Positions 6,176-34,256 of a stretch of 39,434 nucleotides of DNA are shown here, piece after piece (within the stretch, counting starts at the first letter, position 1; every line of letters begins with the position of its first letter). The position numbers and the translations under genes are program-made. A model generated the notes under the pieces. That model did no database searches and was not told the origin of the DNA. It was given only the letters and a program-made list of their open reading frames with translations. Source of the DNA: a virus (lineage: Duplodnaviria > Heunggongvirae > Uroviricota > Caudoviricetes); IMG/VR virus record IMGVR_UViG_2541047689_000010; one strand, 5' to 3'.

Positions 6176-6192
6176 ATTACCTTTCAGGTAAT
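6176..6192. promoter_or_regulatory. Operator-like dyad ATTACC-N5-GGTAAT (family copy)
   Basis: Perfect inverted repeat read directly; lies just upstream of a candidate promoter for gene 6268-6525. Confidence 0.5.
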
Positions 6193-6228
6193 TTGCAAAA
6201 CGTGCTGGATAGCAAACAAATTATTTGC

Positions 6229-6248
6229 TACTGTATAAATATACAGTT
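6229..6248. promoter_or_regulatory. LexA (SOS) box
   Basis: TACTGTATAAATATACAGTT matches the E. coli LexA consensus CTGT-N8-ACAG with AT-rich spacer; ends 20 nt upstream of the ATG at 6268. Confidence 0.65.
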
Positions 6249-6267
6249 ATTGCATGGAGAAGATAAG

Positions 6268-6525
6268 ATGCAGCAGTATCACTATCCACTGGAAGACGGA
6301 TTTACCGAAAGGATTCACACGCCGGGAGGCGTCAGGTCACTGGTGGAGGGATCGCACTTGATGAAATTACTCCGGGATCTCGATAAGGATGGATTTAATG
6401 TCGATGGCCCACTTGCCGAACTGACTGCACTGATTAACTACGTCACCAGCTCACAGATGTCTATGCAGGATCTGCAAACACATCTCGACTATTGTGCCGA
6501 ACAATTACGAAAGCAAACCAGATAA
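6268..6525 (+). CDS. Small SOS-controlled protein homologous to the C-terminal domain of the adjacent Bro-N antirepressor (putative antirepressor)
   Basis: ATG with GGAG upstream, in frame with track ORF 6145-6525; about 85 aa; alignable with residues about 160-230 of the 6839-7531 product. Confidence 0.55.
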   Translation: MQQYHYPLEDGFTERIHTPGGVRSLVEGSHLMKLLRDLDKDGFNVDGPLAELTALINYVTSSQMSMQDLQTHLDYCAEQLRKQTR

Positions 6526-6555
6526 GGTTTGCAATTACCAAGTGGAGTGCTTATA

Positions 6556-6572
6556 TTTACCTTTGCGGTAAA
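6556..6572. promoter_or_regulatory. Operator-like dyad TTTACC-N5-GGTAAA embedded in a longer imperfect inverted repeat
   Basis: Read directly; flanked by GGAGTGC ... GCACTCC. Confidence 0.45.
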
Positions 6573-6838
6573 TTTACATCGCACTCCTCTTGTGCCATAG
6601 TAATCGGGCACTGGCAAAATCCAGTGCCGGGATTGGTCTCCCGGATTACTACAGAGGCACATATGCCGCATAAGCGGTTTTTTTATGTGTAAAGCGCACC
6701 TATTCTATGGTGGGCTGTGTGGGGGCACCGAAAGGTGCGCCGGGTTCCTTTGTAGCCGGTAAGACCAACTCTGCACAGTTCACCACCATCTGATTGGTCT
6801 CAGCGGTGGTGATTAACCTAACTACAAAGGTGATCGCC

Positions 6839-7531
6839 ATGAATACCAAACCTTCCATCTTTTCCTTTGAGTCATCCTGCCAGATCCGTATGTTCATGAT
6901 TGACGGAGAACCTTGGTTTGTCACCAAAGATGTGTGCAATGCTTTGAATATTGATGTTACACAAGCGAGAAAACTTGATAAAAAAGGCTGGAACAAAAAG
7001 GGGCTGTATTCAATACAGACCCCTGGTGGAATACAAGAACTATCCATCGTTTCAGAATCAGGTCTCTACATCCTTATTCTGCGTTGCAAAGAGGCAATGA
7101 CAGAGGGAACGAGAGCATTCAGATTTCTTGAATGGGTTACAGGTGAGGTTCTTCCTCAGATCCGCCGCACCGGAAGTTACATTAAAAACTCGCTCCCGCA
7201 GGAAGAACGCATAAAGATGGTTGCCGACCAGGTAGCCAACGCCACGGCGTCAGCAGTAATGCAGGCGATGAAGATAGAGAACAAAACCTACAGTGCCCCG
7301 CTGAAGCCCGGCTACCGCAGCCTGATTCACTCGCCGTCTGGTGTTCTCGGCCTGACGGAGAACTCACTGCTGATGAATCTGCTGAACCAGTTACAGGAAG
7401 ACGGGCACGACGTATCGGGCGCGGCGGCGGAGCTGACCACCATGTTCTGCTACATCGTCGGTGTGAGTAAATGCCTGCGTGATATCCAGACGCACGCGGA
7501 GTACATCAACGACAAGGCTGGGTTCTTCTGA
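6839..7531 (+). CDS. Antirepressor with N-terminal Bro-N domain
   Basis: Start at ATG (MNTKPSIF...) with SD AAGGTGA; N-terminus FESSCQIRMFMIDGEPWFVTKDVCNALNI is typical of Bro-N/phage antirepressor domains; followed by hairpin GGCACATGGATGTGCC plus T-rich tail. Confidence 0.75.
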   Translation: MNTKPSIFSFESSCQIRMFMIDGEPWFVTKDVCNALNIDVTQARKLDKKGWNKKGLYSIQTPGGIQELSIVSESGLYILILRCKEAMTEGTRAFRFLEWVTGEVLPQIRRTGSYIKNSLPQEERIKMVADQVANATASAVMQAMKIENKTYSAPLKPGYRSLIHSPSGVLGLTENSLLMNLLNQLQEDGHDVSGAAAELTTMFCYIVGVSKCLRDIQTHAEYINDKAGFF

Positions 7532-7596
7532 CGGGCGGCGGCACATGGATGTGCCTTTAAAATAATCATTGGCGATGTGATGTAGATTCGCGTAAT

Positions 7597-7613
7597 ATTA
7601 CCTTAAAGGTAAA
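7597..7613. promoter_or_regulatory. Operator-like dyad ATTACC-N5-GGTAAA overlapping a candidate -10 element
   Basis: Read directly; 25 nt upstream of the 7639 ATG. Confidence 0.5.
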
Positions 7614-7638
7614 CCATGTGTTTACATGAGGAGGAGAT

Positions 7639-7848
7639 ATGGGATTTTGGTTCGCTCGTACAAAAACGAGGGATAATGCACCCAGCCCTCAGGCAAAAAA
7701 TGCAGAAGTTCCGGCGTCAGCGCAGGTTAACAAGCGTGGTGGAGTATATATCTCATCACAGCAAATTTCTGAGCTTCCTGAGGTTAAGGAGATGCGTCGT
7801 CTCGCTGCTGCAATTGTTAAACAGGATCTTGCCACTGTAAGGAAGTAG
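7639..7848 (+). CDS. Small hydrophilic protein (69 aa), unknown function, translationally coupled to the downstream membrane protein
   Basis: SD GAGGAGGAG before ATG; stop TAG overlaps the GTG start of the next gene (TAGTG). Confidence 0.5.
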   Translation: MGFWFARTKTRDNAPSPQAKNAEVPASAQVNKRGGVYISSQQISELPEVKEMRRLAAAIVKQDLATVRK

Positions 7849-8714
7849 TGTTGCTAGCTCTTCTAATTATCCCAATCCTGGTTAGCGGTTATATTATGAT
7901 AACCGCTAACCAGTATCATTATTTCCGTTTATACCGACACGAAGGCCAGCTTCTTTATATGAAAGTAGCGGCACTAGGTACATATTGCCTTGTTGCATCA
8001 GTAATAATTGCAGCCGCTATAAAATATAAATGGCCTGATTTTCACCTAGTTCACGATATGGTGGAAACTTTTAATGTAACATCAAAACCAGAAACAGATA
8101 GAATTTACATGTGGCTGCTTCTTCTCTCAGCCACATCCATTTGCTTCTCTTTGTGTTATGTGTCTGTTGTGTGGGTGAAAGATTTTCTTCTTGGTTGTTT
8201 TTATAAACGTGATATTTACGAGCAAAAAACAGAGGCAATGAAGGCCAGAGTACTGCGAAAAACTTACTCGCAAGGTTCTTTAGACTTACTATTGCTTGAT
8301 GCTATTGAATCGGATCCTAAACGACCAATGCTGATTACTTTATCATCAAACAAAGTGTATGTTGGAATAATAAATGGTTCTGGTGAACCAACGGAAAATC
8401 AGGGTCCGCATCAGCACATATCTTTTGTTCCTTTAATGTCAGGATACAGGAACAAAGAAAACTTATCTGTCACATTCACTAATGCTTATCCAGGAGAAAT
8501 ACAGGTCAAGCGGACTGCAGCAATAAGAGGAATTAGCAGAAAGAAAGTGCCAGGACTTGAGATCATGGTGTCTATTGACGAAATAAGTTATATATCATGG
8601 TTTGATTTTGAAGTATATAAAGCAACAAATAACAAAGTAGAATCCAGGGGGCACGTTATTCGTGTTACCAAAAATGGAAGAAATATATATCAAAGAAATA
8701 GCAAAAAAGAATAG
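7848..8714 (+). CDS. Membrane protein with three N-terminal TM helices and a roughly 170-aa C-terminal soluble domain; unknown function (candidate exclusion/abortive-infection effector)
   Basis: GTG start with AAGGAAG SD; hydrophobic segments LLALLIIPILVSGYIMI, VAALGTYCLVASVIIAAAI, YMWLLLLSATSICFSLCYVSVVW; gene is visibly AT-rich compared with flanking phage genes; intrinsic terminator directly after the stop. Confidence 0.55.
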   Translation: MLLALLIIPILVSGYIMITANQYHYFRLYRHEGQLLYMKVAALGTYCLVASVIIAAAIKYKWPDFHLVHDMVETFNVTSKPETDRIYMWLLLLSATSICFSLCYVSVVWVKDFLLGCFYKRDIYEQKTEAMKARVLRKTYSQGSLDLLLLDAIESDPKRPMLITLSSNKVYVGIINGSGEPTENQGPHQHISFVPLMSGYRNKENLSVTFTNAYPGEIQVKRTAAIRGISRKKVPGLEIMVSIDEISYISWFDFEVYKATNNKVESRGHVIRVTKNGRNIYQRNSKKE

Positions 8715-8736
8715 CCCGCGCTGCGGGCTTTTTTGT
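8714..8736 (+). terminator. Intrinsic terminator
   Basis: GCCCGC-gct-GCGGGC followed by TTTTTTGT, starting at the stop codon of 7848-8714. Confidence 0.6.
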
Positions 8737-8770
8737 GTCTGCGGATTCCCGCCCGGGCGGCGGTGGCATT

Positions 8771-8798
8771 CGTTAAAAACAAGGCCGCGAAAGCGGCC
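8771..8798 (-). terminator. Intrinsic terminator (minus strand)
   Basis: Minus-strand GGCCGC-TTTC-GCGGCC followed by TTGTTTTTAACG; directly downstream of palindrome copy 1. Confidence 0.55.
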
Positions 8799-8799
8799 T

Positions 8800-8811
8800 G
8801 TGACATGTCAC
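8800..8811. repeat. Perfect 12-bp palindrome GTGACATGTCAC, copy 1 of 3
   Basis: Read directly; one nt from the stop codon of 8813-9263 and immediately before the terminator hairpin. Confidence 0.8.
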
Positions 8812-8812
8812 G

Positions 8813-9263
8813 CTACTTGCGAAATCTTTCTTTACCCTTCCAGCCAGTAGATGTTAGTTCAGGATGAATGGTTCCCAATATAAAGCCAACCATAGCGGAG
8901 CGAGGATCTTCTATTTTATCCGTTAATTCTTCGGCATAACTCACAGGCAACCAAGCAACAAGATCACCAATCCTCAGCTTTGGTCCTTTGCTGTAAGATG
9001 AATCGGCAATAACAAAAAATCCACCATCAGCTGAGCACACCTTCAGCATTGCCCTTTGTCTTCCAGAATCTAGCAAAACTGGCTGTTCCCCACTTGGACC
9101 AGGTATGATGATGGCTGGCATTGGTTTATTGGCTGAAAGGCTTGTGTCAAGATACTTACACGCATACTCAAAAGCTGAAAAGTTATCCTTAAAGATAAGA
9201 GGTTGAATTTTATTGCTAACCTCCTTACCACCGATTAATCTGTTGATCATCTTCTTGAACATA
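8813..9263 (-). CDS. Hypothetical protein (about 149 aa), unknown function
   Basis: Start taken at ATG (MFKKMINR...) with SD AGGTGA 5 nt upstream; lies in the AT-rich accessory block. Confidence 0.5.
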
Positions 9264-9274
9264 AAGGTCACCTA

Positions 9275-9715
9275 ATGATTAAGCCGATGCACGCTATTAC
9301 AGCTACCGTTTTGTTTATCCTACCAATTTTTTCGTTTGCAAACGACATATGTTTTAAGAATTTAATAAATGAGGATATGTGTGCACATGCAAACAAAATT
9401 GCATCAGAAGCAGGAAAGTCACTTCCCATAAAATTGAATGATAATATGTCTATTGTTTCAATAAATGCAATACTAAACAAACTTTTAGTTGTAGCGCATC
9501 TTAATTACAACAACAGCTATTTATCAAAAGTTTATAACGGTGATGTAACCTTAGAAAATAAATTAAAGAGTGTAATGCGAAATTATTCAAAATCGAGCAT
9601 TTGCTCCAACAGGCAAATGAAAGCATTTATTCACCTTGGCGGAGAGATTGAATATAGGTATGTATTTAGTGATGGCAATATATTTGATACATACGCCATC
9701 ACTAATTGTGAATAG
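9275..9715 (+). CDS. Secreted/periplasmic small protein with cleavable signal peptide and four Cys; unknown function
   Basis: N-terminus MIKPMHAITATVLFILPIFSFA then NDICF...; AT-rich; stop abuts the stop of the convergent tail gene. Confidence 0.5.
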   Translation: MIKPMHAITATVLFILPIFSFANDICFKNLINEDMCAHANKIASEAGKSLPIKLNDNMSIVSINAILNKLLVVAHLNYNNSYLSKVYNGDVTLENKLKSVMRNYSKSSICSNRQMKAFIHLGGEIEYRYVFSDGNIFDTYAITNCE

Positions 9716-12700
9716 CTATTTCATCTGCTCTTCAACTTTATTTAGTAACGGTGATATCGCCCACAGGTTCTGAAAAGGTAGCATTTTACGGACCGCGTGG
9801 GTTTGCTGGCTGTCAAATTCTCCGTTAAGTACACCATTCGCAACCGTCGCGGCATCACCGCCAAGATCAAAGGTAGGACCAAGTAAAGCACCAATAGCAT
9901 TACGACTCTGAAACCTTGATACCGGAGGCGCACCAAACATCGCGCCAAGACCAAACCTACCGCCGCTTATGTTCTCAACGGTATTCAGCGGCTCAGAGAG
10001 CCAGCCAAGCATTCCGCCCCGGTCGATCCCCTCTTTCACAAGGTTATTCCAGCTGTAGTCGATATCGCGACCGCTTAACTTCTGTTTCATCATATAGACC
10101 ATTGAGCCAAGCGCAATCGTGCCAAGCGCACCAAGATAGAATGCAGCATCGCCCTGCTGGATACCAGATACTAGCACCCTGTTATGCTGTGCGAAGATAA
10201 ACGTTTTGAACTGCGTGATCATCTTCCAGCCTTCTTTACTAAAAAACAGCGGTGTATCACCTACGCCAGGCGTTACAATCACTGAGTCTACATCTTTCAG
10301 CACTGCAGACTGGAAAATCTCTCTAGCGAAACGGTCATCCCACAGATGACTATGCCCGGTTAACAGCCCGTCCATATCCTCTCCGTGCTTCCCGAATTGC
10401 TCCCCGATTCGGCGCAGAACATCTTCATTGATGCCGACCTGTGCCATCTTCCGCATTTCACTTTTGGAGAGCGTGCCACCAGCAGAAACTTGGCGAGCCG
10501 CGTCAAGTATCCTCGACTGCACTATCATCCCGGACCATGATTTAAGTGCGCTGTTCCACTGATTCATCAGCGTCCAGTTACCGAATTTCTGCGTCATCCA
10601 GTTCAGACCTCGCTCAGCGGCGCTTCTCCGGCTATAGGGGTCAGTAAGATCCGCTATAGCCTTTGTACGCGTAGACAGGACATAATCAAGCCCAACGGCC
10701 ATTTCTCGCAAATCCCTGGTTGCAATTTTCACTGAGTCCATATTTTTAAGCATGCTTACCATTGGTCCGAGAGATTTTCTCAGGCCATGCTGCATCATCG
10801 GTCGCATCAGATCAGTTGCAGCGGAGACAGTCATTCCACCAAGCAAACGGAGGAAGTTAATATTCCTAGCAACTCGCCCGGCACGAACAAAGAAACTGCG
10901 TGGATCTTGAGGTGCACCGTAAGTACCAAGCAGTCGATCACGCATAGCCGTAATATCCCTAATATCAGCCTCCCGTTGCTTCTCAAGAACTGCACGTCGT
11001 TTAGGTGTTTTAGCCTCTTTTATTAGCCGGGTATATTCCTCACTAACCTGACGGATTTGCTCCCCCATATCTTTACGGCCAAACTGCGCAGTCAGCTCAA
11101 TTTCTGGTGCCACCTGCCGGAGATAACTTTCCATGATGTAGTTAACATCTGATTCAAGAAAATCTTCTATACGCTCATCAGGAATAAGCAGCGTTCTGCT
11201 TTTAGTGAAACCAGCCCGACCAACGAGTCTCTCTGGGATAATATCGGCTGGTACAAGCCCGGAAGGTGCGCCTATTATTTTATTCACGATCTCGTCAGCA
11301 GCGTCCTCTGCTTCCTCTCGGGATAGAGGCTCCATCTGCTTCAGTGCTCGTTCGCGGCTTGCATTCAGCCTTGTGGTTGAATTTGCCCGTTTTTGCAGTC
11401 GGCGAAGCTCAGAACGATATTTCCGTGGATTATCCAGCAACTCCATATGGCGCTGATAGACAGGAAGCTCACTCTTTGCCTGCGCTATATCATCAAGGCG
11501 TGTTTTAAGGTCAGAGCTTTCTTTCATCATTCTTGCCTGAAGTTTTTCTGATGAAGTCTCGGCCAACTCTTTTTCTATTCTTGTAAGACGCGCCTGTGTG
11601 TCAGTCTCCTGAGATATAAGCTTATTTCGTTTATCCAGTTCTTCCATGAGTAGAATTTTTTTACCAGACCATTTCTCCGCTTCAGCGATTTCACTAGCGA
11701 GAGCATCAGCGCGCGGTGCCGATTCCTCTGCAGTTTTTAGCAATGAATTTATCCTTTCAATTCGCTGACCTGCTTTGTCAGCACCTTTGGCACTAATCCC
11801 TTGTATCCAGTTGGCAATTCGCCCTCTGAATTCAGTGCGGTCGGAAAGTATCTTATCGAACTTATAAATGCGGGGAAGATAACTTTTCGCCGTCACGACA
11901 TCGATATCCTCAGGAAGGATCCCCAGTTCCTGCATACGGGCTTTTGTGGTCTCGAAAATGGGGCGGATTCTGGCGGCTGCTTGTGAAACCTCAGGAATAT
12001 CACTCTGATCACCACGGCGCATAGCCATGCCAACAGCTTCATTGAAATCAATAAAGTTCATCCTCTTCACGCCGCGGGCGCTAACAGATTTGCTGTACTG
12101 CTGGTAAGCATCACGAGTGGCTTCCATCTGCTTATAAAGCATGGCGTCGTATTGCTTAATCTTAGTCTCGACTGCCGTAAACGTAGCCAACCCCTCATCA
12201 TTTTTGGCGAAGAAATAGTTATTTTCGGCAAGCTGCTGGTTAATCTGACGGGAGACAAGAGATGGTGATTGAGCCAAGCGGCCAGCAGGAGTGACACTCA
12301 ACGTTTTGTTAGCAAGTCCAAGTCCAGCGAGCTGTTCCTGATCGAGTGTGGTATTGAAAACCTGAGCTGCACCAATGCTTTGAGGAGAATCCATACCTCG
12401 CAAATGATTACCTACTGAGTTAACCACTGCCTCGCGCGCGCTAGGTCCAGCAAGTAGCTGTGCACCAGCACCAAGGATCCCACCAACGAGAGCATCAACA
12501 ACAACGTTCGATACGCTCTCCATCGGTGAGCGAGCTTCCTGAGTGGCCTGTAATGCGGCTTCTGATACTCCCCCACCAGCAGCATTCGCCAGGGCAAAAC
12601 GCCCTGCCGTCTCAGCAATACTTCCTCCACGCGCTACCGCCCCTACAGGGATAAACATTGCAGCCACATTAACCGGGTCTATCATTCCCATTGCTAAGCT

Positions 12701-13105
12701 TGAAATAGTACCAGCACCACCCATTTCAGATAGATATTCTCTATCTGTTCTTTGCTTATCGATTCGATGTTTAATTGCCATTGTTTCTTCATGCGAACCG
12801 GAGTTGATAAACGAATCTGCAAAATCTTCATAGCCTTTAATATCTGCTGCATCGTTATCAAATGGGTTATATCCTTCAACCCTGTCAAACTGACTGAAAG
12901 GAGCACTGGCAATAAAGCTACCCAGCGTGTTATCTATACGAAATGCTGCTTGTCTAGACCTTTGAACGCGTTGATCACTGGTAAATGGGTTCACAGCAGA
13001 AAGCAAAGAAGGTGTTTCCATATAGAAATTACTGTCATCAGGTGCTGCTATTTGCTGAATATCCTCGCCAAGCAACTCTTTAGGATCCTGTTCATATATC
13101 GGCAT
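9716..13105 (-). CDS. Large virion internal/ejection or tail protein (1129 aa) with extended coiled-coil region
   Basis: Size, position in the structural block, long charged helical segment; no tape-measure/sheath/tube set elsewhere, consistent with a podovirus internal core protein. Confidence 0.65.
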   Translation of the reverse strand: MPIYEQDPKELLGEDIQQIAAPDDSNFYMETPSLLSAVNPFTSDQRVQRSRQAAFRIDNTLGSFIASAPFSQFDRVEGYNPFDNDAADIKGYEDFADSFINSGSHEETMAIKHRIDKQRTDREYLSEMGGAGTISSLAMGMIDPVNVAAMFIPVGAVARGGSIAETAGRFALANAAGGGVSEAALQATQEARSPMESVSNVVVDALVGGILGAGAQLLAGPSAREAVVNSVGNHLRGMDSPQSIGAAQVFNTTLDQEQLAGLGLANKTLSVTPAGRLAQSPSLVSRQINQQLAENNYFFAKNDEGLATFTAVETKIKQYDAMLYKQMEATRDAYQQYSKSVSARGVKRMNFIDFNEAVGMAMRRGDQSDIPEVSQAAARIRPIFETTKARMQELGILPEDIDVVTAKSYLPRIYKFDKILSDRTEFRGRIANWIQGISAKGADKAGQRIERINSLLKTAEESAPRADALASEIAEAEKWSGKKILLMEELDKRNKLISQETDTQARLTRIEKELAETSSEKLQARMMKESSDLKTRLDDIAQAKSELPVYQRHMELLDNPRKYRSELRRLQKRANSTTRLNASRERALKQMEPLSREEAEDAADEIVNKIIGAPSGLVPADIIPERLVGRAGFTKSRTLLIPDERIEDFLESDVNYIMESYLRQVAPEIELTAQFGRKDMGEQIRQVSEEYTRLIKEAKTPKRRAVLEKQREADIRDITAMRDRLLGTYGAPQDPRSFFVRAGRVARNINFLRLLGGMTVSAATDLMRPMMQHGLRKSLGPMVSMLKNMDSVKIATRDLREMAVGLDYVLSTRTKAIADLTDPYSRRSAAERGLNWMTQKFGNWTLMNQWNSALKSWSGMIVQSRILDAARQVSAGGTLSKSEMRKMAQVGINEDVLRRIGEQFGKHGEDMDGLLTGHSHLWDDRFAREIFQSAVLKDVDSVIVTPGVGDTPLFFSKEGWKMITQFKTFIFAQHNRVLVSGIQQGDAAFYLGALGTIALGSMVYMMKQKLSGRDIDYSWNNLVKEGIDRGGMLGWLSEPLNTVENISGGRFGLGAMFGAPPVSRFQSRNAIGALLGPTFDLGGDAATVANGVLNGEFDSQQTHAVRKMLPFQNLWAISPLLNKVEEQMK

Positions 13106-19362: not shown

Positions 19363-19967
19363 CAGGACAACCTCGCAATGGTAAACTCGTCAACCGGTGG
19401 CTGTGGTTCCTGTGATTCATTCTGGCTATGCGAGCCAGCACTAAGAATCACGCGATTGTACATATTGAGGGCAAACGTACCGAGGTCTGCATTCCCAGTC
19501 AGCGCCATGTTAATAGCTGCCGCAAGACGCCAAGCCAACGCCTCCATAAAAATGGCATCAAACATGTTCACATCTGTAACGCGAGAGACATACTTGAGCC
19601 ATGCCTGCGGCTGGTCTGTGTAGATCAATTTTCCTGTTCCGTTGGTGTCTGCACCAACTTCGTACTGAACACGCATTGCTGCTGTTGGATTGCGTACACC
19701 AGGAAGCATAATTTCAGTAATGCGCAGACAATCGGACGGGTACTGATACGCATATTCCCAGTCAGGCGGTGGATTGCTCGTATCTGCAAGCGCCACGCGT
19801 TTGGTAGCAAAGTTCCAGTCAAAATCAGAAAGCACAGCATCACGGCAGGCCTCAAAGTGCAGCGAACATTCCCCCGCTTCCTTGCTGGCTTCCGTCAGGC
19901 TGTTAATGCTGCGGCTGTTGCCAATATTGGACAGCGCACGATTACAGATCTCTACTACAGAGGCCAT
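19362..19967 (-). CDS. Head-tail adaptor / tail tubular-like protein (201 aa)
   Basis: Position between head genes and large tail protein. Confidence 0.5.
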   Translation of the reverse strand: MASVVEICNRALSNIGNSRSINSLTEASKEAGECSLHFEACRDAVLSDFDWNFATKRVALADTSNPPPDWEYAYQYPSDCLRITEIMLPGVRNPTAAMRVQYEVGADTNGTGKLIYTDQPQAWLKYVSRVTDVNMFDAIFMEALAWRLAAAINMALTGNADLGTFALNMYNRVILSAGSHSQNESQEPQPPVDEFTIARLS

Positions 19968-24861: not shown

Positions 24862-25068
24862 TTACTGACCAAGCAGCGTTTTACCGCTGGTATTAGCGGT
24901 TGATGTGTCGCCCTGAGAACCGGTAAGCAGCGTAGAACTACGACCAGCAGCAGCGCGACGGCGACGAGTTTCTTCGTCTCGGGCATCAACAACGGCGGAA
25001 TCCTGCTCCTGTGGTGCTGCCTGAACTTCTGGTGTTGCAGGCACTGATGGTGAGCTACCCATGCACAT
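24862..25068 (-). CDS. Possible small protein upstream of portal (frame uncertain)
   Basis: Two overlapping short ORFs in the track; chosen frame has a more protein-like hydrophilic composition. Weak. Confidence 0.3.
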   Translation of the reverse strand: MCMGSSPSVPATPEVQAAPQEQDSAVVDARDEETRRRRAAAGRSSTLLTGSQGDTSTANTSGKTLLGQ

Positions 25069-25157
25069 ATCAATGACTCCGTACGCAATTAAATTATTAC
25101 CAATTTAACCACATATGATTTATTTATCGTAGGCAGTTGACATTTAACGCGCGAATT

Positions 25158-25174
25158 ATTACCCTTCGGGTAAC
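25158..25174. promoter_or_regulatory. Operator-like dyad ATTACC-N5-GGTAAC next to a TTGACA hexamer (25137-25142)
   Basis: Read directly; upstream of tRNA/moron module. Confidence 0.5.
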
Positions 25175-26131: not shown

Positions 26132-26143
26132 GTGACATGTCAC
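26132..26143. repeat. Perfect 12-bp palindrome GTGACATGTCAC, copy 2 of 3
   Basis: Read directly; 4 nt after the stop of 25771-26127 and 4 nt before the terminator stem. Confidence 0.8.
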
Positions 26144-26147
26144 AAAC

Positions 26148-26174
26148 AGCCAGCCGATGAGCTGGCTTTGTTTT
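26148..26174 (+). terminator. Intrinsic terminator
   Basis: AGCCAGC-cgatga-GCTGGCT followed by TTGTTTT. Confidence 0.65.
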
Positions 26175-26217
26175 ATCCTCACCAGAGGATATCAACGACA
26201 TTATCCCCACCAGCGGA

Positions 26218-27693: not shown

Positions 27694-28286
27694 TGATTAC
27701 CATCCTGACGTTCTTTGAGTCGCTTCCTGGCTGCCGCTATGCGATCAGCAATTGTCACATTCACATTAACATCCAGGCGCTCTTTGAACGCGTTGACGTC
27801 GACGTGCTTACCGATAAGCTCGAGGTTCTTCACCTTGTCAGGCCATTTAATTTTTTTGAGGATTGTCTCTATCGAATCCTCGTTCATGTTCATGATGGTC
27901 GATGACAGATCAAAGCCGCTAAGCGTAGTGCGCCAGATTTTCGGCCACTCGCGGATTGGCTTAAGGCTCCCATCGTCGTTGAGGATGTCGATCACGTCCA
28001 TCTGGTCGATCTCCACCAGGCGCATGAGAACGTAATCAGCACTGACGCGCATTCGTTTGTTGCGCTCCTCCATCAGCTCGGCAATCCGTTTTTGAATGCG
28101 TTCATCGCGCATCATGACACTGGCTTTAACTGCCGCTGTATTTGGGGAGAATCCTGCGTTAATCGCTGCCTGAGTCTGGTTTTCAGGCGTTTTGATGTAT
28201 GACTGGCAATAAGCCTCCTGCATTGCTGTTAGTGGCTTAAATTGCGTTGATTTGCGTTTATAGGTTTTAGGTTCAGCAGGCATCAT
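27690..28286 (-). CDS. Putative terminase small subunit
   Basis: Directly upstream of and overlapping the large terminase; start set at internal ATG because the longer track ORF would include an intrinsic terminator hairpin. Confidence 0.5.
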   Translation of the reverse strand: MMPAEPKTYKRKSTQFKPLTAMQEAYCQSYIKTPENQTQAAINAGFSPNTAAVKASVMMRDERIQKRIAELMEERNKRMRVSADYVLMRLVEIDQMDVIDILNDDGSLKPIREWPKIWRTTLSGFDLSSTIMNMNEDSIETILKKIKWPDKVKNLELIGKHVDVNAFKERLDVNVNVTIADRIAAARKRLKERQDGNQ

Positions 28287-28328
28287 AACCACCGTGGTAA
28301 TAGTTACCGTTGTGGTAATAGTACCATG

Positions 28329-28355
28329 CAAAATAAAGCCGCCATAGTTGGCGGC
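28329..28355 (-). terminator. Intrinsic terminator (minus strand) separating the early cluster from the packaging/late genes
   Basis: Minus-strand GCCGCC-AACTAT-GGCGGC followed by TTTATTTTG. Confidence 0.55.
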
Positions 28356-28396
28356 AGTATTCAAAACCCATCAAATTCATCATGCATAATCTACTC

Positions 28397-28408
28397 GTGA
28401 CATGTCAC
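28397..28408. repeat. Perfect 12-bp palindrome GTGACATGTCAC, copy 3 of 3
   Basis: Read directly; overlaps the TGA stop of 28405-28743. Confidence 0.8.
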
Positions 28409-28743
28409 ACTATTAATTTCGTTTCATGCCAGCCTTTAGTCACCCAGCATTGCGAGTCACCATTACACGGGCATGAATTAACGGGAACTCTCTCGCCGCA
28501 CTTACCGCAAAGTTTTCTGCTGATCGATTTTATACGCCCGCGCACACGTGCATCATCCTGGCGGATCAGCAGCGCGATGTACTCGGCCATTTCATAGGGA
28601 TCGCGACTAGGGCGCCGGGCGGCGCAGTTCCGCGCCAGCATTTCAATTTCCTGAGCATCAAGCACAATTTCCAGCTTACACACACCAGATGCAGCTTGTC
28701 TGGCTCTCTGAGCGGCTTTGCGCTCTGCTGCTGATTTAGCCAT
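28405..28743 (-). CDS. Cys-rich small protein (possible zinc-binding regulator; candidate late-gene regulator)
   Basis: Start at ATG (MAKSAAERK...); basic N-terminus; Cys cluster CGKCGERVPVNSCPCNGDSQC; last gene before the terminator and terminase genes. Function inferred from position only. Confidence 0.45.
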   Translation of the reverse strand: MAKSAAERKAAQRARQAASGVCKLEIVLDAQEIEMLARNCAARRPSRDPYEMAEYIALLIRQDDARVRGRIKSISRKLCGKCGERVPVNSCPCNGDSQCWVTKGWHETKLIV

Positions 28744-29017
28744 CAATATTTACCTTTATCGCGAACACCTTTACCGGTTTATCACCGAAGTGGGGATGTG
28801 TGATTGTCTTGATTTCATATCCGTCATACTGGACGTTAATTCTGCGGCTGGAGTCGTCGCGCTTCGGATATCCCTTTGTGATAATCAGGCGGTCATACTC
28901 CCGGAACATAATTCGCTTATTCCAGTAGTCATTACACAGGCGATACTCTTCCGTTTTCTCTCCGCGAATCATGGCATCGAAGTATTCACCTTTAACGGCA
29001 AGTTGCAGGTTAGCCAC
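28736..29017 (-). CDS. Hypothetical early protein (about 94 aa)
   Basis: GTG start preceded by AAGGAG at 6-nt spacing; longer TTG-initiated track ORF would overlap the upstream gene by 92 nt. Confidence 0.5.
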   Translation of the reverse strand: MANLQLAVKGEYFDAMIRGEKTEEYRLCNDYWNKRIMFREYDRLIITKGYPKRDDSSRRINVQYDGYEIKTITHPHFGDKPVKVFAIKVNIDG

Positions 29018-29489
29018 GGTTAACTCCTTGCTGTGTGGCGTCGAGTAATAAATCCCACAACCGCTGAGAGCAATTTCCGCATGTACAGCGTTGACCCACA
29101 ACGTTTATCGCGTTGCTGATTTCCGGCGTTACCTGTTTAGGAACCATAACCCAGCCATCCGGAGTTACCGGAGAGTTGCCATTTACATCGAAGTTTGGCT
29201 CTGCGTCCTGAACCAGGAGGATGTAACCATTCTTGGCTGTATCAAGTTCTAACGCCTCGGTGACGGTGCCGAAATAGCGATTACCTAAATCAGCATCACA
29301 AGTGCTTACATCAATGGAAACTTCCATGCCTTCGATTAATTCTGGTAAGTTGTAAGTTTGGTTTACAGGCTCTGCTTCCAGCGATGCCAGAGCAATTCGT
29401 GCCAGTTCCATTTGTTCGCCACGGGTAAGCCCGTTATCAAGCGGATTTTTAATGAATAATTCGATACGTTCTTTGGTAATAGTGGTCAT
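29010..29489 (-). CDS. Hypothetical early protein (159 aa)
   Basis: ATG start; compactly coupled with neighbours. Confidence 0.5.
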   Translation of the reverse strand: MTTITKERIELFIKNPLDNGLTRGEQMELARIALASLEAEPVNQTYNLPELIEGMEVSIDVSTCDADLGNRYFGTVTEALELDTAKNGYILLVQDAEPNFDVNGNSPVTPDGWVMVPKQVTPEISNAINVVGQRCTCGNCSQRLWDLLLDATQQGVNRG

Positions 29490-29695
29490 TTGTTAATCCT
29501 CAAAACTTTATGCCCGGGCGCAAAAGCACGTGTTTTGTCTTTACTTATTCGCCACCCGTCTTTACGGGCCTCTTTTGCACAACCAGACCATGACGTACCG
29601 ATATACTCACCGAAGTCTGGCACTGGATATACACCTTCCGTACACTGGCGGCAGTCACAATAGAGATGCATGGTGTAACTTGCAGCGATAGCCAT
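29486..29695 (-). CDS. Small Cys-rich protein (possible zinc ribbon; Lar-like restriction-alleviation protein is one speculative possibility)
   Basis: Start at ATG coupled to the upstream stop (TGATATG); motif YCDCRQC...SGC; identity not established. Confidence 0.4.
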   Translation of the reverse strand: MAIAASYTMHLYCDCRQCTEGVYPVPDFGEYIGTSWSGCAKEARKDGWRISKDKTRAFAPGHKVLRINK

Positions 29696-29696
29696 A

Positions 29697-30140
29697 TCAC
29701 TCTCCTTTGATGCGAATGCCTGTTGCAATGCTGTTTATGATGCTGTCAGTGCATGGGGTAGAAAGCTGGGCATCTCCAGCAATTTTCATGACATCAACAT
29801 CTGCATATCGAATACCGAGGTGTATCAGACCGGCTATACCTGACTTAAGCCGAGCATTTTCCATAAACAGATCCTTTGCCCGCTGTTTTTCTGCCTCAAG
29901 CTCAACGCGCAACTTCCCTACCGTTAGCGCAATATCCTCGTTCTCCTGGTCGCGGGATTTGATGTATTGCTGGTTTCTTTCCCGTTCATCCAACAATACC
30001 AGCGCGATATCTGGCGAAAAGTGCTTCATAAAATCGTTAAGCGCATTAATTCGCTGATCGAAAGGCATTACAGGTGCTTCACCAGCAATTTTTGTTTTTT
30101 CAGCGATTTCACGAAGCTTTTGATAATCAATCTTGCTCAC
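29697..30140 (-). CDS. Hypothetical early protein (147 aa)
   Basis: ORF with coupled boundaries; charged helical composition. Confidence 0.5.
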   Translation of the reverse strand: MSKIDYQKLREIAEKTKIAGEAPVMPFDQRINALNDFMKHFSPDIALVLLDERERNQQYIKSRDQENEDIALTVGKLRVELEAEKQRAKDLFMENARLKSGIAGLIHLGIRYADVDVMKIAGDAQLSTPCTDSIINSIATGIRIKGE

Positions 30141-30670
30141 TGGTTGCCTCCTTTGCGAAGCTTCGCCGCAAAATCAGCCGCAACCTCTTTGACCATATTG
30201 GATAGCGGAGTGCCACCTCCGAATTTTTCTGAGAACATCTCTACCCCCTGCGCCCGTACTTCAGCCAGGAAAGCATCGGTGGCTGGGGTTTCGATATCGT
30301 TAATTTCAGGAAGAATCTCTTCCCATGTAGCGATATCGCCATTCAAATGCCATCCGGCAATTCCACTGGAGTTATCCGCAACACTCCGAACGGCTTCAAT
30401 AGCTTCATGCATTGCCGCATTCTCCGCCGCCAGCGCCGAAAACTTCTCGTGTGCCAACTTAACAGCCGAATCAGCCTGCTTAATTGACTCAATCGCTTTC
30501 TGCTGGTCTTCGGCCATCGCATTAGCACGCACCAGTTGCACTTCCAGTTGCGTTGCCAAATCGCTGATCAGCTTTGCCACACTGCGCATATCAACGGCAC
30601 CACATTCTGCTTTCAGTTCCGAAGCCATCTCATGCCCGGCGGCAACTAACCCTTTGATATTACTTTCCAT
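30137..30670 (-). CDS. Hypothetical early protein (177 aa), acidic/helical
   Basis: ORF with coupled boundaries. Confidence 0.5.
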   Translation of the reverse strand: MESNIKGLVAAGHEMASELKAECGAVDMRSVAKLISDLATQLEVQLVRANAMAEDQQKAIESIKQADSAVKLAHEKFSALAAENAAMHEAIEAVRSVADNSSGIAGWHLNGDIATWEEILPEINDIETPATDAFLAEVRAQGVEMFSEKFGGGTPLSNMVKEVAADFAAKLRKGGNQ

Positions 30671-30731
30671 CTTTACCCTCGCTTATCCACATAACTTATT
30701 GATTACATTGATAACTAAAAAGATCGTCGAT

Positions 30732-31076
30732 TCAGAACTCTTCGATGTTCCAGCCACCACCTGCTTTCTTTGGTTTAACCGTTACCCCGATGATTCGGAA
30801 CGGATACTGATCTGCGGCGACTTTGGTTTTCACCCTGGCGTCGTCGGTCCAGAAACCTTTCACTTCGTGCAGTTCCATCTCGCCGGTGGCGAGCATCACA
30901 GCAAAATCTGGCGTATAGAACGTGTTGTCAGCTAACCGCAGCTTGATACCCTCAAATCGATACCAGACGATTTCTCCTGCACGTTTACGCAACTCAAGGT
31001 GCTGGCAATACGCAGATTCTGTTTTGTTCATCTGGCCTGTTTTGAGTCGACCAAGAGCCTGTATCTGTTTTCTCAT
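30732..31076 (-). CDS. Putative PD-(D/E)XK-type nuclease (114 aa)
   Basis: Motif ...YTPDFAV...MELHEVKG... fits PD-x(n)-(D/E)-x-K; first gene after an operator-flanked promoter. Confidence 0.5.
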   Translation of the reverse strand: MRKQIQALGRLKTGQMNKTESAYCQHLELRKRAGEIVWYRFEGIKLRLADNTFYTPDFAVMLATGEMELHEVKGFWTDDARVKTKVAADQYPFRIIGVTVKPKKAGGGWNIEEF

Positions 31077-31078
31077 AA

Positions 31079-31157
31079 TTTACCCCTGAGGTAATTAAAA
31101 ACCACATAAGACACGAAATCAATAGAGTTTAGAATACTTTGTTACCCAGAAGGTAAC
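31079..31157 (-). promoter_or_regulatory. Candidate regulated promoter: -35 TTGATT and -10 TTTAAT (minus strand) bracketed by two operator-like dyads (31079-31095 and 31141-31157)
   Basis: Dyads TTTACC-N5-GGTAAT and GTTACC-N5-GGTAAC read directly; hexamers 17 nt apart; proximal dyad overlaps the SD of gene 30732-31076. A weak hairpin plus A7/T7 run at 31169-31188 precedes it. Confidence 0.5.
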
Positions 31158-31193
31158 TATCAAGGCGTAAAAAAATGCGCTATCGCGCTGGTA

Positions 31194-31994
31194 TTACTTG
31201 ATAAATCCTGCCGCCTTTCCCCGCCTGTATTCCTCCATCAGCCACTGTGCCGGTGTTATTCCCCCCAATGTGGCGGCGTTAGGCATACACCCGAAACTTC
31301 GCCCTGGTGGATGGTAAACGTCTCTCCCTGTGTCCGGAGGCGTACTCATGGGTTCTGGCTTTGCCTGTATGCTGATCACCGGATCGGGTATCTGCTGTCC
31401 GGAAGCTACCTTTTTCGCCCAATCATCGAGCAGCCTGCGCGCGTGTTTCTCAACCTCAATCTCGCTAAGCTGGCGCTGATACATTGCACGGCGGGTATCA
31501 CATACGACCCTGTACATAACCGGATGTCGCCACGGGAATCTTTCGGGACCACCAGGATATAAACTTTTTTCCTTGCTGTACCGGTGAAACTCCGCCATCA
31601 CATCGTCAATGGTGACGCCAAGAACCATCTTGCTGTCTTTACACCACTTGATGAATTGCCCTGGCGACGGCCAGAACGGAGATTCACTGGCGCGGGCGTG
31701 GCGCATACCAGCAGAAACCTGTTCACGGGTTCGGATCCCCCCTTCGGCAAACGCAGCAATCCACTGCTGTTTTGCAGCAACTTCCTGCTCTGGAGTCTTC
31801 AGGTTGGTTACTACTGCCGCCGGAAACAGTTGTTTCAGCTGTTTGAAAAGGGCATCAACAAGCCTCTCTGCTGACATGTTCACCACATTGTCATTGTTGA
31901 CGTACTGATGCTCATAACCTGACATGCGAGAAAGGGCTTCTCCGTCACGGTTTTGTATCGCGGTAAAAACGTTGTTCACAAGAAATCCTCCCAC
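31194..31994 (-). CDS. Lambda P-like replication protein (DnaB helicase loader)
   Basis: Segment QLFPAAVVTNLKTPEQEVAAKQQWIAAFAEGGIRTREQVSAGMRHARASESPFWPSPGQFIKWCKD aligns with the conserved core of lambda P; true start may be the internal ATG at 31925. Confidence 0.8.
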   Translation of the reverse strand: MGGFLVNNVFTAIQNRDGEALSRMSGYEHQYVNNDNVVNMSAERLVDALFKQLKQLFPAAVVTNLKTPEQEVAAKQQWIAAFAEGGIRTREQVSAGMRHARASESPFWPSPGQFIKWCKDSKMVLGVTIDDVMAEFHRYSKEKSLYPGGPERFPWRHPVMYRVVCDTRRAMYQRQLSEIEVEKHARRLLDDWAKKVASGQQIPDPVISIQAKPEPMSTPPDTGRDVYHPPGRSFGCMPNAATLGGITPAQWLMEEYRRGKAAGFIK

Positions 31995-32767
31995 GCTTCA
32001 GGGCTGTTCCAGTGCGGAACGTTGTTATCAGGTAATGTTGATTGCTTCTGTCTGCTAATCTGCAGCCGCCTTGCCAGCTTCTGCTCCCACTGTGCCTGAT
32101 GGTATGCCTTACCCTCAGCCATCCAGTAAATTCTGAACTCTGCAAGCTCCTGTGCCGTTGGCAGACTGTCCAGGTAGATCCCCTGCAATGAGCTTTTCCG
32201 AAGAAAGTCATCTGATGGCTGCCATTGTTCATGCATGACAAATTTGCCTAATTGCCCTGGCCCACCAGGAGGAACAAAGTTATTCATCACGGCGTTGTTT
32301 GCGCCGGGGTCATGAGGCACAGAATCCCCGCTTTTTGTCCTGCTCTCCCTCTCTTGGTTAAATGACTGGTTATATGACTGGTTCTGGATCCCGTTTTTGG
32401 GATCATTCAACATCCCGTTTTTGGGTATATTCCCGTTTTCGGTAACATTACCGTTTTCGGGTTCATTACCCCCTTCCCGGTTGCCTTTAATGTTCCCGTT
32501 TTTGGTTATATTAAGAGAGAAAACCCGCACTCTTTTCGTCGCACCCTTTCTCTCTCCGGTATCTGAAATAAGCCCCATTTTCATGAGCGATATAAGCCCG
32601 GCCTGCACGGTTTTTTTATTCAGGCAAGTGTCTTTAACGAGGCGTTCTATGCTGGGGTAGCAGAGGTTATATTCATCGGCTCTGTCAGCCATCGAGAGCA
32701 GTATGAGCTTTAATGACGAGCTACCTGGATCTGTCTCCCAGGCCCAATCTGTTGCATGTCTGCTCAT
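31976..32767 (-). CDS. Lambda O-like replication initiator with internal iteron-encoded repeat region
   Basis: HTH-type N-terminal domain, central Asn/Gly-rich repeats (GNREGGNEPENGNVTENGNIPKNG) encoded by DNA iterons, position directly upstream of the P-like gene. Confidence 0.75.
   Translation of the reverse strand: MSRHATDWAWETDPGSSSLKLILLSMADRADEYNLCYPSIERLVKDTCLNKKTVQAGLISLMKMGLISDTGERKGATKRVRVFSLNITKNGNIKGNREGGNEPENGNVTENGNIPKNGMLNDPKNGIQNQSYNQSFNQERESRTKSGDSVPHDPGANNAVMNNFVPPGGPGQLGKFVMHEQWQPSDDFLRKSSLQGIYLDSLPTAQELAEFRIYWMAEGKAYHQAQWEQKLARRLQISRQKQSTLPDNNVPHWNSPEAWEDFL
32385..32512. repeat. Origin-of-replication iterons (about six copies of TCCCGTTTT(T/C)GG at roughly 19-20 bp periodicity) inside the O-like gene
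   Basis: Direct repeats read from the sequence; preceded by tandem ATGACTGGTT x2 (32361-32383). Confidence 0.6.
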
Positions 32768-32782
32768 GATTAATCTCCGCTA

Positions 32783-32983
32783 TCAGCTTGAATGTTGTGG
32801 GGAGGAATTAATCATGATCTGCTTAATCTCTGCCCTGATGCGACGGTTTGATTCCATAGTGCACTCAACACAGTGTCCGTTGTAAACCCAGCGTTCACTG
32901 TCATGTCCGTGCTTACATGGTTTTCCGGTGTAGTAGCGTTTAAGTCCGCGCTTTGCGGCATCAATACGTGTAATAATTTCCAT
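32783..32983 (-). CDS. Small Cys/His-containing protein at the cII-equivalent position; unknown function
   Basis: Start at internal ATG (MEIITRID...); motif CKHGHDSERWVYNGHCVEC. Confidence 0.4.
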   Translation of the reverse strand: MEIITRIDAAKRGLKRYYTGKPCKHGHDSERWVYNGHCVECTMESNRRIRAEIKQIMINSSPQHSS

Positions 32984-33133
32984 GGTAAGCCCTGTTATTA
33001 GTATTGGGATTACGGTCATTTTGTGCTGACACAAAAAAAAGATCAACCAGATTTGGTTTTTTATTACCTTTGAGGTACGAATAGATATGAAAAGACCGCC
33101 GGATGGCGGTCTACAGAGGGTTGTGGATGGATA

Positions 33134-33364
33134 TCATGAGTAGAAGAAGTATGCCAGTTCTGCTTTTGAGCGCAGCCATTGTCTTGTTTTACAGGCTTTA
33201 AAAAGCCCATTCATCAATACCTTACCTGGCATTTTGCGCTTACCTGTTAAGTGAGTCTGGATATAGTGACTCGTCGTTCCGGCTTCCTGTGCGAAGGCTT
33301 CACGCTCATCCGGAGTAAGTGCAAGCCAGTGCTTTTTGAAATCGAAATGTCCGTTATCGCTCAT
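33134..33364 (-). CDS. Cro-like HTH regulator (first gene of the replication-side early operon)
   Basis: 76 aa, divergent from the repressor gene across a 154-bp operator region; HTH-like segment EAFAQEAGTTSHYIQTHLTG. Confidence 0.55.
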   Translation of the reverse strand: MSDNGHFDFKKHWLALTPDEREAFAQEAGTTSHYIQTHLTGKRKMPGKVLMNGLFKACKTRQWLRSKAELAYFFYS

Positions 33365-33399
33365 AGCTATTGCCTGATATTTATTTCAGATAATAAATA

Positions 33400-33464
33400 T
33401 TCACCCATAAGGTAACAAAAATCAAGGATAGTTACCTATGAGGTGCATTTACCTGTTGGGTAAT
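33400..33464. promoter_or_regulatory. Immunity-region operators: three adjacent dyad sites (33400-33416, 33431-33447, 33448-33464) between the divergent cro-like and repressor genes
   Basis: TTCACC-cataa-GGTAAC, GTTACC-tatga-GGTGCA, TTTACC-tgttg-GGTAAT read directly. Confidence 0.55.
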
Positions 33465-33518
33465 ATTGCTTTAAATTGAATCATCTACTGATTCATATAT
33501 GAGGCGATTTTCCAGAAA

Positions 33519-34103
33519 ATGAAAAGTATCCAGGACGTCCGCAGGCAAAATCTCAACGACTTGATCGACCGTGAATTCAATGGTGTTCAGACGCGGATGG
33601 CAGAAAAACTTGGAACTCAGGCAAATCTGGTAAACCGCTGGGCTCTTGGCAAGAAGGTTATCGGCGACCAGGTTGCGCGAAAAATTGAAGCTGCCGCCAA
33701 TAAACCCCGTAACTGGCTTGATATCGATCGCTCGCTTTCTCAGGAAGGTTTTCAGCCTGTCGGCCCAAGCGACATTGGTCAGCTGGCGGCTCACAACCTG
33801 GAACGCTGGATGAGCGAAAGCCGCGACCTTTCAACGCAGGGAAAACTTCACCGCGCATCCGGCGTCGCCCAGGTGACAATCAGTCGCCTGTTAAACAATG
33901 AGGTCAGCGTTTCCATTTCCACCCTGGAGAATGTTGCATCCGCATTCGGGCGTCACGGATATGAACTACTGATTCACCCGCACGACCCTGCGACTATCAA
34001 CTATGACCGCTCGCGCTACGCATTGTTACCCGAAACCGAGAAAGCAAAGATCGAAAGTTACATTGAATTTGTCATCAACCAGAACGAAAAAAGCAAACAA
34101 TAA
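33519..34103 (+). CDS. Prophage repressor (CI-like) with two helix-turn-helix domains and no LexA-type (S24) autocleavage domain
   Basis: 194 aa; two HTH-like segments (...QTRMAEKLGTQANLVNRWALGKK... and ...LHRASGVAQVTISRLLNNEV...); no Ala-Gly/Ser-Lys peptidase motifs seen; divergent from cro-like gene; followed by a strong terminator. Confidence 0.65.
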   Translation: MKSIQDVRRQNLNDLIDREFNGVQTRMAEKLGTQANLVNRWALGKKVIGDQVARKIEAAANKPRNWLDIDRSLSQEGFQPVGPSDIGQLAAHNLERWMSESRDLSTQGKLHRASGVAQVTISRLLNNEVSVSISTLENVASAFGRHGYELLIHPHDPATINYDRSRYALLPETEKAKIESYIEFVINQNEKSKQ

Positions 34104-34124
34104 AAATATATTTTTCAGTAAGTA

Positions 34125-34150
34125 AGCCGCCTCATGGCGGCTTTTTTATT
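34125..34150 (+). terminator. Intrinsic terminator after the repressor gene
   Basis: AGCCGCC-tcat-GGCGGCT followed by TTTTTTATT. Confidence 0.7.
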
Positions 34151-34159
34151 GCCAGATAG

Positions 34160-34238
34160 ATTACCTTACGGGTAATTTTTTTAACTCATATCTATTGACA
34201 CCAAACCAAATAAGCATAATTATTACCTCAACGGTAAC
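34160..34238 (+). promoter_or_regulatory. Candidate regulated promoter of the recombination-side operon: dyads at 34160-34176 and 34222-34238 flanking a TTGACA hexamer (34195-34200); extra GGTAAC half-site at 34246-34251
   Basis: ATTACC-ttacg-GGTAAT and ATTACC-tcaac-GGTAAC read directly; -10 assignment ambiguous. Confidence 0.5.
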
Positions 34239-34256
34239 AGACCGAGGTAACAAGTT

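Follow-up and report, generated by a model that had tools for sequence, protein, structure and literature searches.

Dispersed TTACC-N5-GGTAA dyads as probable operators of the repressor Rep in a φV10/ε15-like prophage

Results

A 17-bp dyad recurs throughout the prophage

The DNA analyzed (39,434 nucleotides, IMG/VR record IMGVR_UViG_2541047689_000010, hereafter the window) is a φV10/ε15-like (genus Uetakevirus) prophage inserted beside host yfgI, and the element studied is a 17-bp palindromic dyad with the core TTACC-N5-GGTAA. The gene order of the window is the same as in φV10, ε15, and SPC32H, and coliphages of the φV10 group are ~97% DNA-identical to it across the regulatory region. Positions 1–1071 form the left flank with the host genes yfgH (1–516) and yfgI (532–1071), followed by the att core aatcattcccactcaat (1162–1178), the reverse complement of the attP published for ZX5, φV10, and ε15 (PMC9782041). 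A guaA-side attachment site is reported for these three phages, and the prophage of the window occupies the same site. As the integrase gene runs off the right end, the window represents an almost complete prophage.

The dyad TTACC-N5-GGTAA was present in 10 exact copies in the window. With up to one mismatch allowed, 14 copies were found versus 0.68 expected, and none of 100 shuffled sequences reached this number; for WTTACC-N5-GGTAAW (W, A or T), 6 exact copies compared with 0.01 expected. In an unbiased scan of all 5-mer dyads with spacers of 0 to 12 bp, TTACC with a 5-bp spacer ranked first with its 10 copies, and the runner-up had 3. These counts rule out a chance origin of the dyad set and bear out the excess that a preliminary description of this DNA had claimed. 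Intergenic DNA makes up 7.6% of the window and holds all 10 exact copies (P ~7e-12).

The preliminary description had listed eleven sites, nine of them with both arms intact and two in the immunity region with one degenerate arm each, and all eleven were found as described. Overlooked were a tandem pair at terS (28285–28301 and 28303–28319) and a site behind the cro terminator (33063–33079). A further match at position 2948, with one mismatch, is probably due to chance: it falls within the coding sequence of a holin, lacks conservation, and stays at the level expected by chance.

Dyads cluster between rep and cro

The prophage repressor Rep (194 amino acids, 33519–34103, plus strand) consists of an N-terminal helix-turn-helix (HTH) DNA-binding domain and a C-terminal HTH-like domain for tetramerization and binding of the antirepressor Ant. 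Residues 1–190 match the SPC32H Repressor (PDB 5D50 chain A; phmmer E = 3.5e-42), and the protein is 98% identical to the φV10/ZX5 repressor cluster. The divergent gene on the minus strand (33134–33364) encodes a Cro-like small HTH protein (phrog_35, ‘transcriptional repressor’, E = 5.6e-13). Between the window and ε15, the Cro-like protein is 76% identical (ε15 gp39) and Rep 43%.

Three dyads lie between the two genes, one of them in the spacer of the cro promoter and another over the candidate −35 element of rep; all −35 and −10 elements given for the window are consensus predictions. The perfect dyad TTTACCTGTTGGGTAAT (33448–33464) has arms that are invariant in six genomes, and its left arm constitutes the candidate rep −35 (TTTACC), with a candidate −10 TAAATT at 33472–33477. 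It is abutted, at 17 bp center to center, by a degenerate dyad (33431–33447, TTACC...GGTGC, two mismatches in the right arm), the counterpart of which is a full dyad in ε15, SPC32H, and BUCT711. The third, imperfect dyad (33400–33416, TCACC...GGTAA, one mismatch) occupies the spacer of the cro promoter (−35 TTGATT, 33425–33420; −10 AATATT, 33401–33396), and at this position one arm is imperfect in all six genomes. Outside this cluster, the one-mismatch dyad TTACCTTTGAGGTAC (33063–33079) is located between the cro terminator, which it closely follows, and the replication genes; equivalents with one mismatch were found in φV10 (33112), Tyrion (35365), and BUCT711 (6032).

The dyad set is conserved and in part annotated in related phages

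In φV10, ε15, SPC32H, Enterobacter phage Tyrion, and Klebsiella phage BUCT711, 13 to 18 copies each were counted with up to one mismatch, compared with ~0.5 expected. They occupy orthologous positions before terS, before the first head gene, between ant and the tailspike gene, in the early-left region, between rep and cro, and in the post-replication region; some relatives have further dyads before the lysis cassette and int. When five of these regions were aligned across the six genomes from four host genera, the arms were invariant, the 5-bp spacer varied freely, and the adjoining −35/−10 hexamers were kept. This combination is the pattern of a protein-binding site rather than that of an RNA stem.

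The RefSeq record of ε15 (NC_004775.2) contains seven features labeled ‘protein_bind: repressor / lysogeny’ (at 12, 2931, 19895, 32479, 32554, 32616, and 35906), all of which read TTACC-N5-GGTAA. The ε15 genome paper reportedly described a 17-bp hyphenated inverted repeat as a putative operator. The idea of dispersed operators is thus already in the public record for the genus, the dyad system is essentially known, and the claim of one dispersed repressor operator set is not new. New are the two overlooked site groups, the 62-bp pairs flanking promoters, the predicted operator at the isrK/C4/Bro unit, the putatively repressor-gated cargo slot, and the frozen operator core, which are treated below.

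As a separate observation, int is immediately preceded by a conserved dyad with one mismatch, TTACCYTAAAGGTAT, in ε15 (26882), φV10 (26870), SPC32H (26960), and Tyrion (28568); the equivalent position of the window falls beyond its right end.

Two early promoters are flanked by dyads spaced 62 bp apart

At the early-left promoter of the recombination operon, the distal dyad (34160–34176) ends 18 bp upstream of the −35 element TTGACA (34195–34200), and the proximal dyad (34222–34238) abuts the −10 element AATTAT (34218–34223), which follows the −35 element after a 17-bp spacer. The post-replication (‘nin-like’) region is similarly equipped: its distal dyad (31141–31157) lies just past the terminator following the P-like replication gene, and its proximal dyad (31079–31095) overlaps the −10 element TTTAAT (31099–31094) of a minus-strand promoter with the −35 element TTGATT (31122–31117). 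The spacer of the latter dyad carries the Shine-Dalgarno sequence of a DUF1064-like gene (ATG at 31076). Both pairs are separated by exactly 62 bp center to center, and the orthologous pairs of all six genomes have the same distance, apart from a single case of 63 bp.

Late operons carry dyads of their own

The exact dyad before terS (28303–28319) is orthologous to ε15 12–27, which is annotated ‘repressor’. Its one-mismatch neighbor (28285–28301) abuts it at 18 bp center to center and touches the probable ATG of terS (28286–28284), and the tandem arrangement is common to φV10, ε15, and Tyrion. In φV10 (L001), the terS start annotated at 41 (gene 41–715) lies upstream of the two dyads at 87–119; it was probably placed too far upstream, since the start codon comes after the dyads in ε15 and in the window.

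At the head-operon promoter, the distal dyad (25158–25174) precedes the invariant block CATATGTGGTTAAATTGGTAATAAT, with a GGTAA half-site inside, and the gene for the gp3 homologue (24862–25068, minus strand). The preliminary description had placed this dyad before a tRNA module. Dyad and head promoter are retained jointly in ε15 and Tyrion, both of which have no tRNA gene, and the dyad therefore belongs to the head operon.

A single dyad (6176–6192) is found in the divergent control region of the tailspike gene and ant; it is orthologous to ε15 19895–19911, again annotated ‘repressor’, and the conserved promoter block of the tailspike gene, CATATGTGGTT...GGTAATAGAAT, lies downstream of it. 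Both the head and the tailspike promoter have a weak −35 element, and they share the invariant CATATGTGGTT block, after which a GGTAA half-site follows. Considered as decayed proximal dyads of 62-bp pairs, the half-site of the head promoter would fit (67 bp to the would-be second arm) and that of the tailspike promoter would not (55 bp), so that this origin was rejected.

Independently of the dyads, the motif TATGTGGTT occurred in three copies in the window versus 0.19 expected (6137–6145, 25107–25115, and 31100–31108, minus strand). In the head and tailspike promoters, this motif falls within the invariant CATATGTGGTT...GGTAAT block that precedes the candidate −10 element, and a late activator of the phage may act on it.

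In the region 1289–6072 (minus strand), the lysis cassette comprises two holin-like genes, a GH19 endolysin gene, and a DUF2514 spanin-like gene. In the window it has no dyad of its own and directly follows the tailspike gene; the arrangement in the Klebsiella phage BUCT711 is similar. φV10, ε15, and SPC32H contain an O-antigen-modifying gene between the tailspike gene and the lysis cassette, and none is present in the window.

Antirepressor units and a cargo slot are fronted by dyads

The gene that the preliminary description had called SOS-controlled encodes the small antirepressor Ant (85 amino acids, 6268–6525, plus strand), as judged from its match to the ‘Anti-repressor protein’ of PDB 5D50 chain E (phmmer E = 4.1e-47). 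It is preceded by a LexA box CTGTATAAATATACAG (6231–6246), the CTGTAT...ACAG of which is invariant in the six genomes. Two dyads had been described as flanking this gene. Both are located there, but the one at 6556–6572 is more than a flank of ant: it abuts the −10 element TATATT (6552–6557; −35 TTGCAA, 6529–6534) and is the predicted operator of a second promoter. This promoter is predicted to drive an isrK-like RNA (6608–6684, plus strand; Rfam RF01394, 74.7 bits, above gathering) and a C4 antisense RNA (6703–6790, plus strand; RF01695, 78.6 bits, above gathering), which together form the leader of the Bro-N gene, and the Bro-N protein itself (open reading frame to 7531, plus strand; Pfam E = 2e-13). 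A c4-a1b1 target at 6595–6647 scored 39.9 bits, which is below gathering. The isrK/C4/Bro-N unit is a second antirepressor module resembling P1/P7 immI, situated beside the LexA-controlled Ant.

Downstream, the dyad at 7597–7613 overlaps the −10/+1 region (−10 TAATAT, 7593–7598; −35 TTGGCG, 7569–7574) of a cargo operon (7639–8714, plus strand) that encodes a 69-amino-acid protein and a 288-amino-acid protein with three to four N-terminal hydrophobic segments (phrog_3630, a PHROG of unknown function). No PADLOC, NCBIfam, or Pfam match was obtained for this operon, and PHROGs hit only families of unknown function. Behind Bro-N, a related prophage of E. coli (L007) has the same membrane-protein operon, whereas EC.W1-9 carries two different genes in this slot and TL-2011b a unit with a YafO-family toxin. 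The promoter sequences of these three unrelated cargo sets are themselves unrelated, and each has its own dyad beside the −10 element, which indicates that this slot is under selection for control by the dyad-binding protein. The proposal that the repressor governs several moron-like modules was retained in a reduced form, as a single true accessory unit (7639–8714) is fronted by a dyad. Its dyad overlaps −10/+1, so that silence in the lysogen rather than lysogenic expression is predicted. The genes of the slot would then be lytic-phase or derepression-triggered cargo and not classical lysogenic-conversion morons.

Discussion

Identity of the dyad-binding protein

A single phage-encoded DNA-binding protein, as proposed before, is the best reading of a set with three dyads between rep and cro, further sites at promoters, and arms conserved in six genomes. 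Judged from sequence comparison, the dyads are probably operators of Rep, a tetrameric master repressor of the SPC32H/ε15 type with two HTH-like domains. The earlier suggestion that the two-HTH repressor reads all sites is strengthened by the ‘repressor’ annotation in ε15 and by the homology of Rep and Ant to the crystallized pair of Salmonella phage SPC32H (PDB 5D50 and 5D4Z), while the Cro-like protein may also occupy the dispersed sites. As cited in a secondary source (PMC9638917), SPC32H Rep binds palindromic sites as a tetramer in which the DNA-binding domains pair from different dimers, and Ant breaks this tetramer. When the ZX5 repressor, which has the same sequence as that of φV10, was overexpressed, the holin mRNA level fell by 99.97% and no lytic growth took place (PMC9782041).

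The two TTACC half-sites of a dyad are 10 bp apart, and a pair of N-terminal HTH domains can therefore contact both on one face of the helix. With two such pairs, a Rep tetramer could hold two dyads at once. We infer that Rep occupies the dispersed dyads, with one tetramer bridging the paired sites, namely abutting dyads in the immunity region and at terS, and dyads 62 bp apart that would sandwich a σ70 promoter at the early-left and post-replication operons. Single dyads would act where they abut −10/+1 (isrK/C4/Bro unit, cargo operon) or from upstream of the late-type promoters with a weak −35 element (head, tailspike). Rep would thus silence early, late, antirepressor, and cargo promoters in the lysogen, and this distributed repression would shut nearly every transcription unit directly and not via a cascade. 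Following the SPC32H model, DNA damage would release LexA from the ant promoter, Ant would dismantle the Rep tetramers, and all dyad-controlled promoters would open together. For a prophage type that is extremely common in E. coli, this would explain near-total silencing by one protein and joint release via a LexA-controlled antirepressor. No new kind of regulation is revealed; the dyads represent a real, highly significant, and well-organized operator set of a known repressor family.

Several points weigh against the assignment to Rep. At the head and tailspike promoters the dyads are ~55–70 bp upstream of the candidate −10 element, where simple occlusion is unworkable. In the more distant loci L088 and L095, the dyad pairs deviate from the 62-bp spacing. 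The evidence that places Rep on the dyads consists of the features of the ε15 record, one secondary citation, and inference, and the Cro-like protein, being more conserved than Rep, should share at least the immunity sites. Moreover, no covariation between operator and recognition helix was found, as every Uetakevirus-type locus examined keeps the TTACC core. Such covariation is a test of which protein reads the site and not a published defining feature of an operator set. It was sought in an exhaustive profile search with contig look-ups, which gave about twelve clusters of full-length Rep proteins with identities as low as 29%; of the 441 Rep relatives obtained in the IMG/VR scan, the best 80 were 99–100% identical and hence of no use for this purpose. 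Rep helix 3 reads VSETTVSLW, VKASLVSQW, or YQPNQISRY as against TQANLVNRW, with the same TTACC core in each case, and TTACC-N5-GGTAA was the top dyad also where helix 3 differed (8–9 exact copies in L088 and L095, 5 in L096, and 3 in the 1.25-kb L090). With the same core in every locus of this type, there is no alternative specificity that could be correlated with Rep.

The Cro-like protein might instead be the main reader of the dispersed dyads during lytic growth, braking early and accessory promoters, with Rep confined to the immunity region. It is an HTH protein of a ‘transcriptional repressor’ family, its high conservation across the genus, far above that of Rep, fits the invariant dyad core, and in lambda-type switches Cro and the repressor share operators; the Cro-like protein very probably shares the immunity-region sites. 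We nevertheless consider its dominance at the dispersed sites unlikely. Its own helix-3 region varies in L088 and L095 while the dyad core is unchanged, the dyads of the terS, head, and tailspike operons would be counter-productive targets for a lytic-phase repressor, the curators of ε15 assigned the sites to the repressor, and overexpressed Rep silences late lysis genes. The two readings are, moreover, compatible with each other. Much less credible is that the dyads mark promoters activated by another phage regulator, such as the 112-amino-acid ‘transcriptional regulator’ at the end of the early-right operon (28405–28746), a PerC-like activator, or an AlpA-like protein. The weak −35 elements and the invariant CATATGTGGTT block of the head and tailspike promoters do look activator-dependent, but this block is a motif other than the dyad, and the dyad is also found on a strong consensus promoter (TTGACA-17-AATTAT at 34195). 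Its three-fold occurrence at rep/cro, where an operator is expected, likewise speaks against an activator site.

That the phages exploit a host transcription factor of the Enterobacterales recognizing TTACC-N5-GGTAA would account for the identical core in phages of Escherichia, Salmonella, Enterobacter, and Klebsiella despite the divergence of Rep, yet we regard it as highly improbable. No enterobacterial factor is known to us to have a TTACC half-site with this spacing. No exact dyad was present in ~14.5 kb of host DNA of L007 or in the host segments of L088, L094, and L095. The dyads also occur strictly together with the immunity module of Uetakevirus, as they are missing around the Rep homologues that lambdoid prophages carry. 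Next to the arm, all 18 half-sites of L088 have T, whereas A occupies this position in 18 of 20 half-sites of SPC32H and in 18 of 22 of ε15, and the A+T content of the spacer is 0.60–0.68 in the φV10 group versus 0.85–0.96 in ε15, SPC32H, and BUCT711. These lineage-specific features favor a phage-specific reader over a host factor. Least probable of all is a function as RNA hairpins (terminators, RNase III sites, or translational operators). Some dyads are indeed located in 5′ leaders, and those at 31079 and 28285 enclose a Shine-Dalgarno sequence, but the stems have only 5–7 bp (−3.3 to −6.4 kcal/mol) and no U-tract, and the arms are invariant with a varying loop and no compensatory change. 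The dyads at 34160, 31141, and 25158 are upstream of −35 elements and would not be transcribed, and no Rfam family matched any dyad of the window.

Relation to known repressor systems

The dyads of the window closely correspond to those of ε15 and SPC32H, which share the TTACC-N5-GGTAA core, the orthologous positions, homologous Rep and Ant proteins, and the LexA box before ant; their Rep proteins are only 42–43% identical to that of the window. ε15 has three early-left dyads and the window two, and the ε15 record contains no annotation of the rep/cro dyads or of the second post-replication dyad. In comparison with both phages, the window alone has a second dyad behind ant that fronts the isrK/C4/Bro-N unit, and it differs further in its dyad-fronted cargo operon and in the lack of a dyad before the lysis cassette.

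In mechanism, the system is similar to a multi-operator regulon of the P1 C1 or φC31 type that is coupled to the Rep/Ant/LexA switch of SPC32H. In P1, one repressor, C1, acts on many scattered operators, including that of the immI (c4-icd-ant) antirepressor operon with its C4 leader. The window likewise has scattered sites at many operons and a C4 RNA upstream of the Bro-N open reading frame, with a dyad at the promoter of this unit. In contrast, the P1 operators are asymmetric 17-mers bound by an unrelated protein, whereas those of the window are symmetric and presumably bound by an Xre-type HTH tetramer; induction would depend on LexA-controlled Ant in the window and depends on Coi/Ant alone in P1. 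The conserved inverted repeats of φC31 and the stoperators of mycobacteriophage L5 are short repressor sites dispersed in intergenic DNA, and in all these temperate phages many copies of one short site are spread across the genome. The repressors of φC31 and L5 are unrelated to Rep. L5 stoperators are asymmetric, orientation-biased, and located within transcription units; no such features were found for the sites of the window, which are palindromic and promoter-associated, all exact copies being intergenic and promoter-proximal. With lambda CI and its OR/OL sites, the window shares the divergent rep/cro arrangement with three operators in between and, probably, an oligomer bound to two or more operators at once. 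Silence of the late genes is indirect in lambda, where no Q is made, whereas the late operons of the window carry operators of their own; CI undergoes RecA-stimulated self-cleavage, whereas the prophage of the window would rely on an antirepressor. Pairing of sites at 62 bp around a promoter is not a feature of lambda.

Implications of a frozen operator core

The operator core of L088, L090, L095, and L096 is the same as that of the window though helix 3 of both Rep and the Cro-like protein differs substantially. Throughout the genus the core appears frozen, with the two proteins diverging to ~40% identity. One speculative and rather doubtful explanation is a permissive recognition by Rep, by which ε15-like phages would form one cross-immune and cross-inducible network, with specificity residing in the Rep-Ant pairing or in flanking and spacer bases. 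Under the same reading, the cargo slot behind Bro-N would be repressor-gated and fire only on derepression, as lytic cargo or when triggered by the antirepressor of a relative. The assignment to Rep predicts that the cargo operon (7639–8714) and the isrK/C4/Bro unit are off in the lysogen, and that insertion of half a helical turn between the 62-bp pairs weakens repression. φV10-type phages serve as O157 reporter phages, and the operator map with its 14 sites in 9 control regions may be used in the engineering and reporter design of such phages.

Full-length Rep homologues with 29–38% identity were also encoded in L091 (10001–10600), L092 (676–1278), L093 (3660–4262), and L094 (10001–10603). 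These accessory homologues are found in lambdoid prophages that have their own CI/Cro, between the lysis genes and Q or terminase genes, and one stands alone beside guaA; no TTACC dyads were detected near them in L091–L094. Those of the lambdoid prophages (L091–L093) could be decoy repressors that confer immunity against ε15-like phages.

A second palindrome, GTGACATGTCAC, was found in three copies in the window versus 0.03 expected (8800–8811, 26132–26143, and 28397–28408). It lies just past the last gene of minus-strand operons and adjoins terminators at 8800 and 28397. In ε15 it is located at the ends of terL, gp18, and gp49; it is conserved across the genus and is one base shorter than a matS site.

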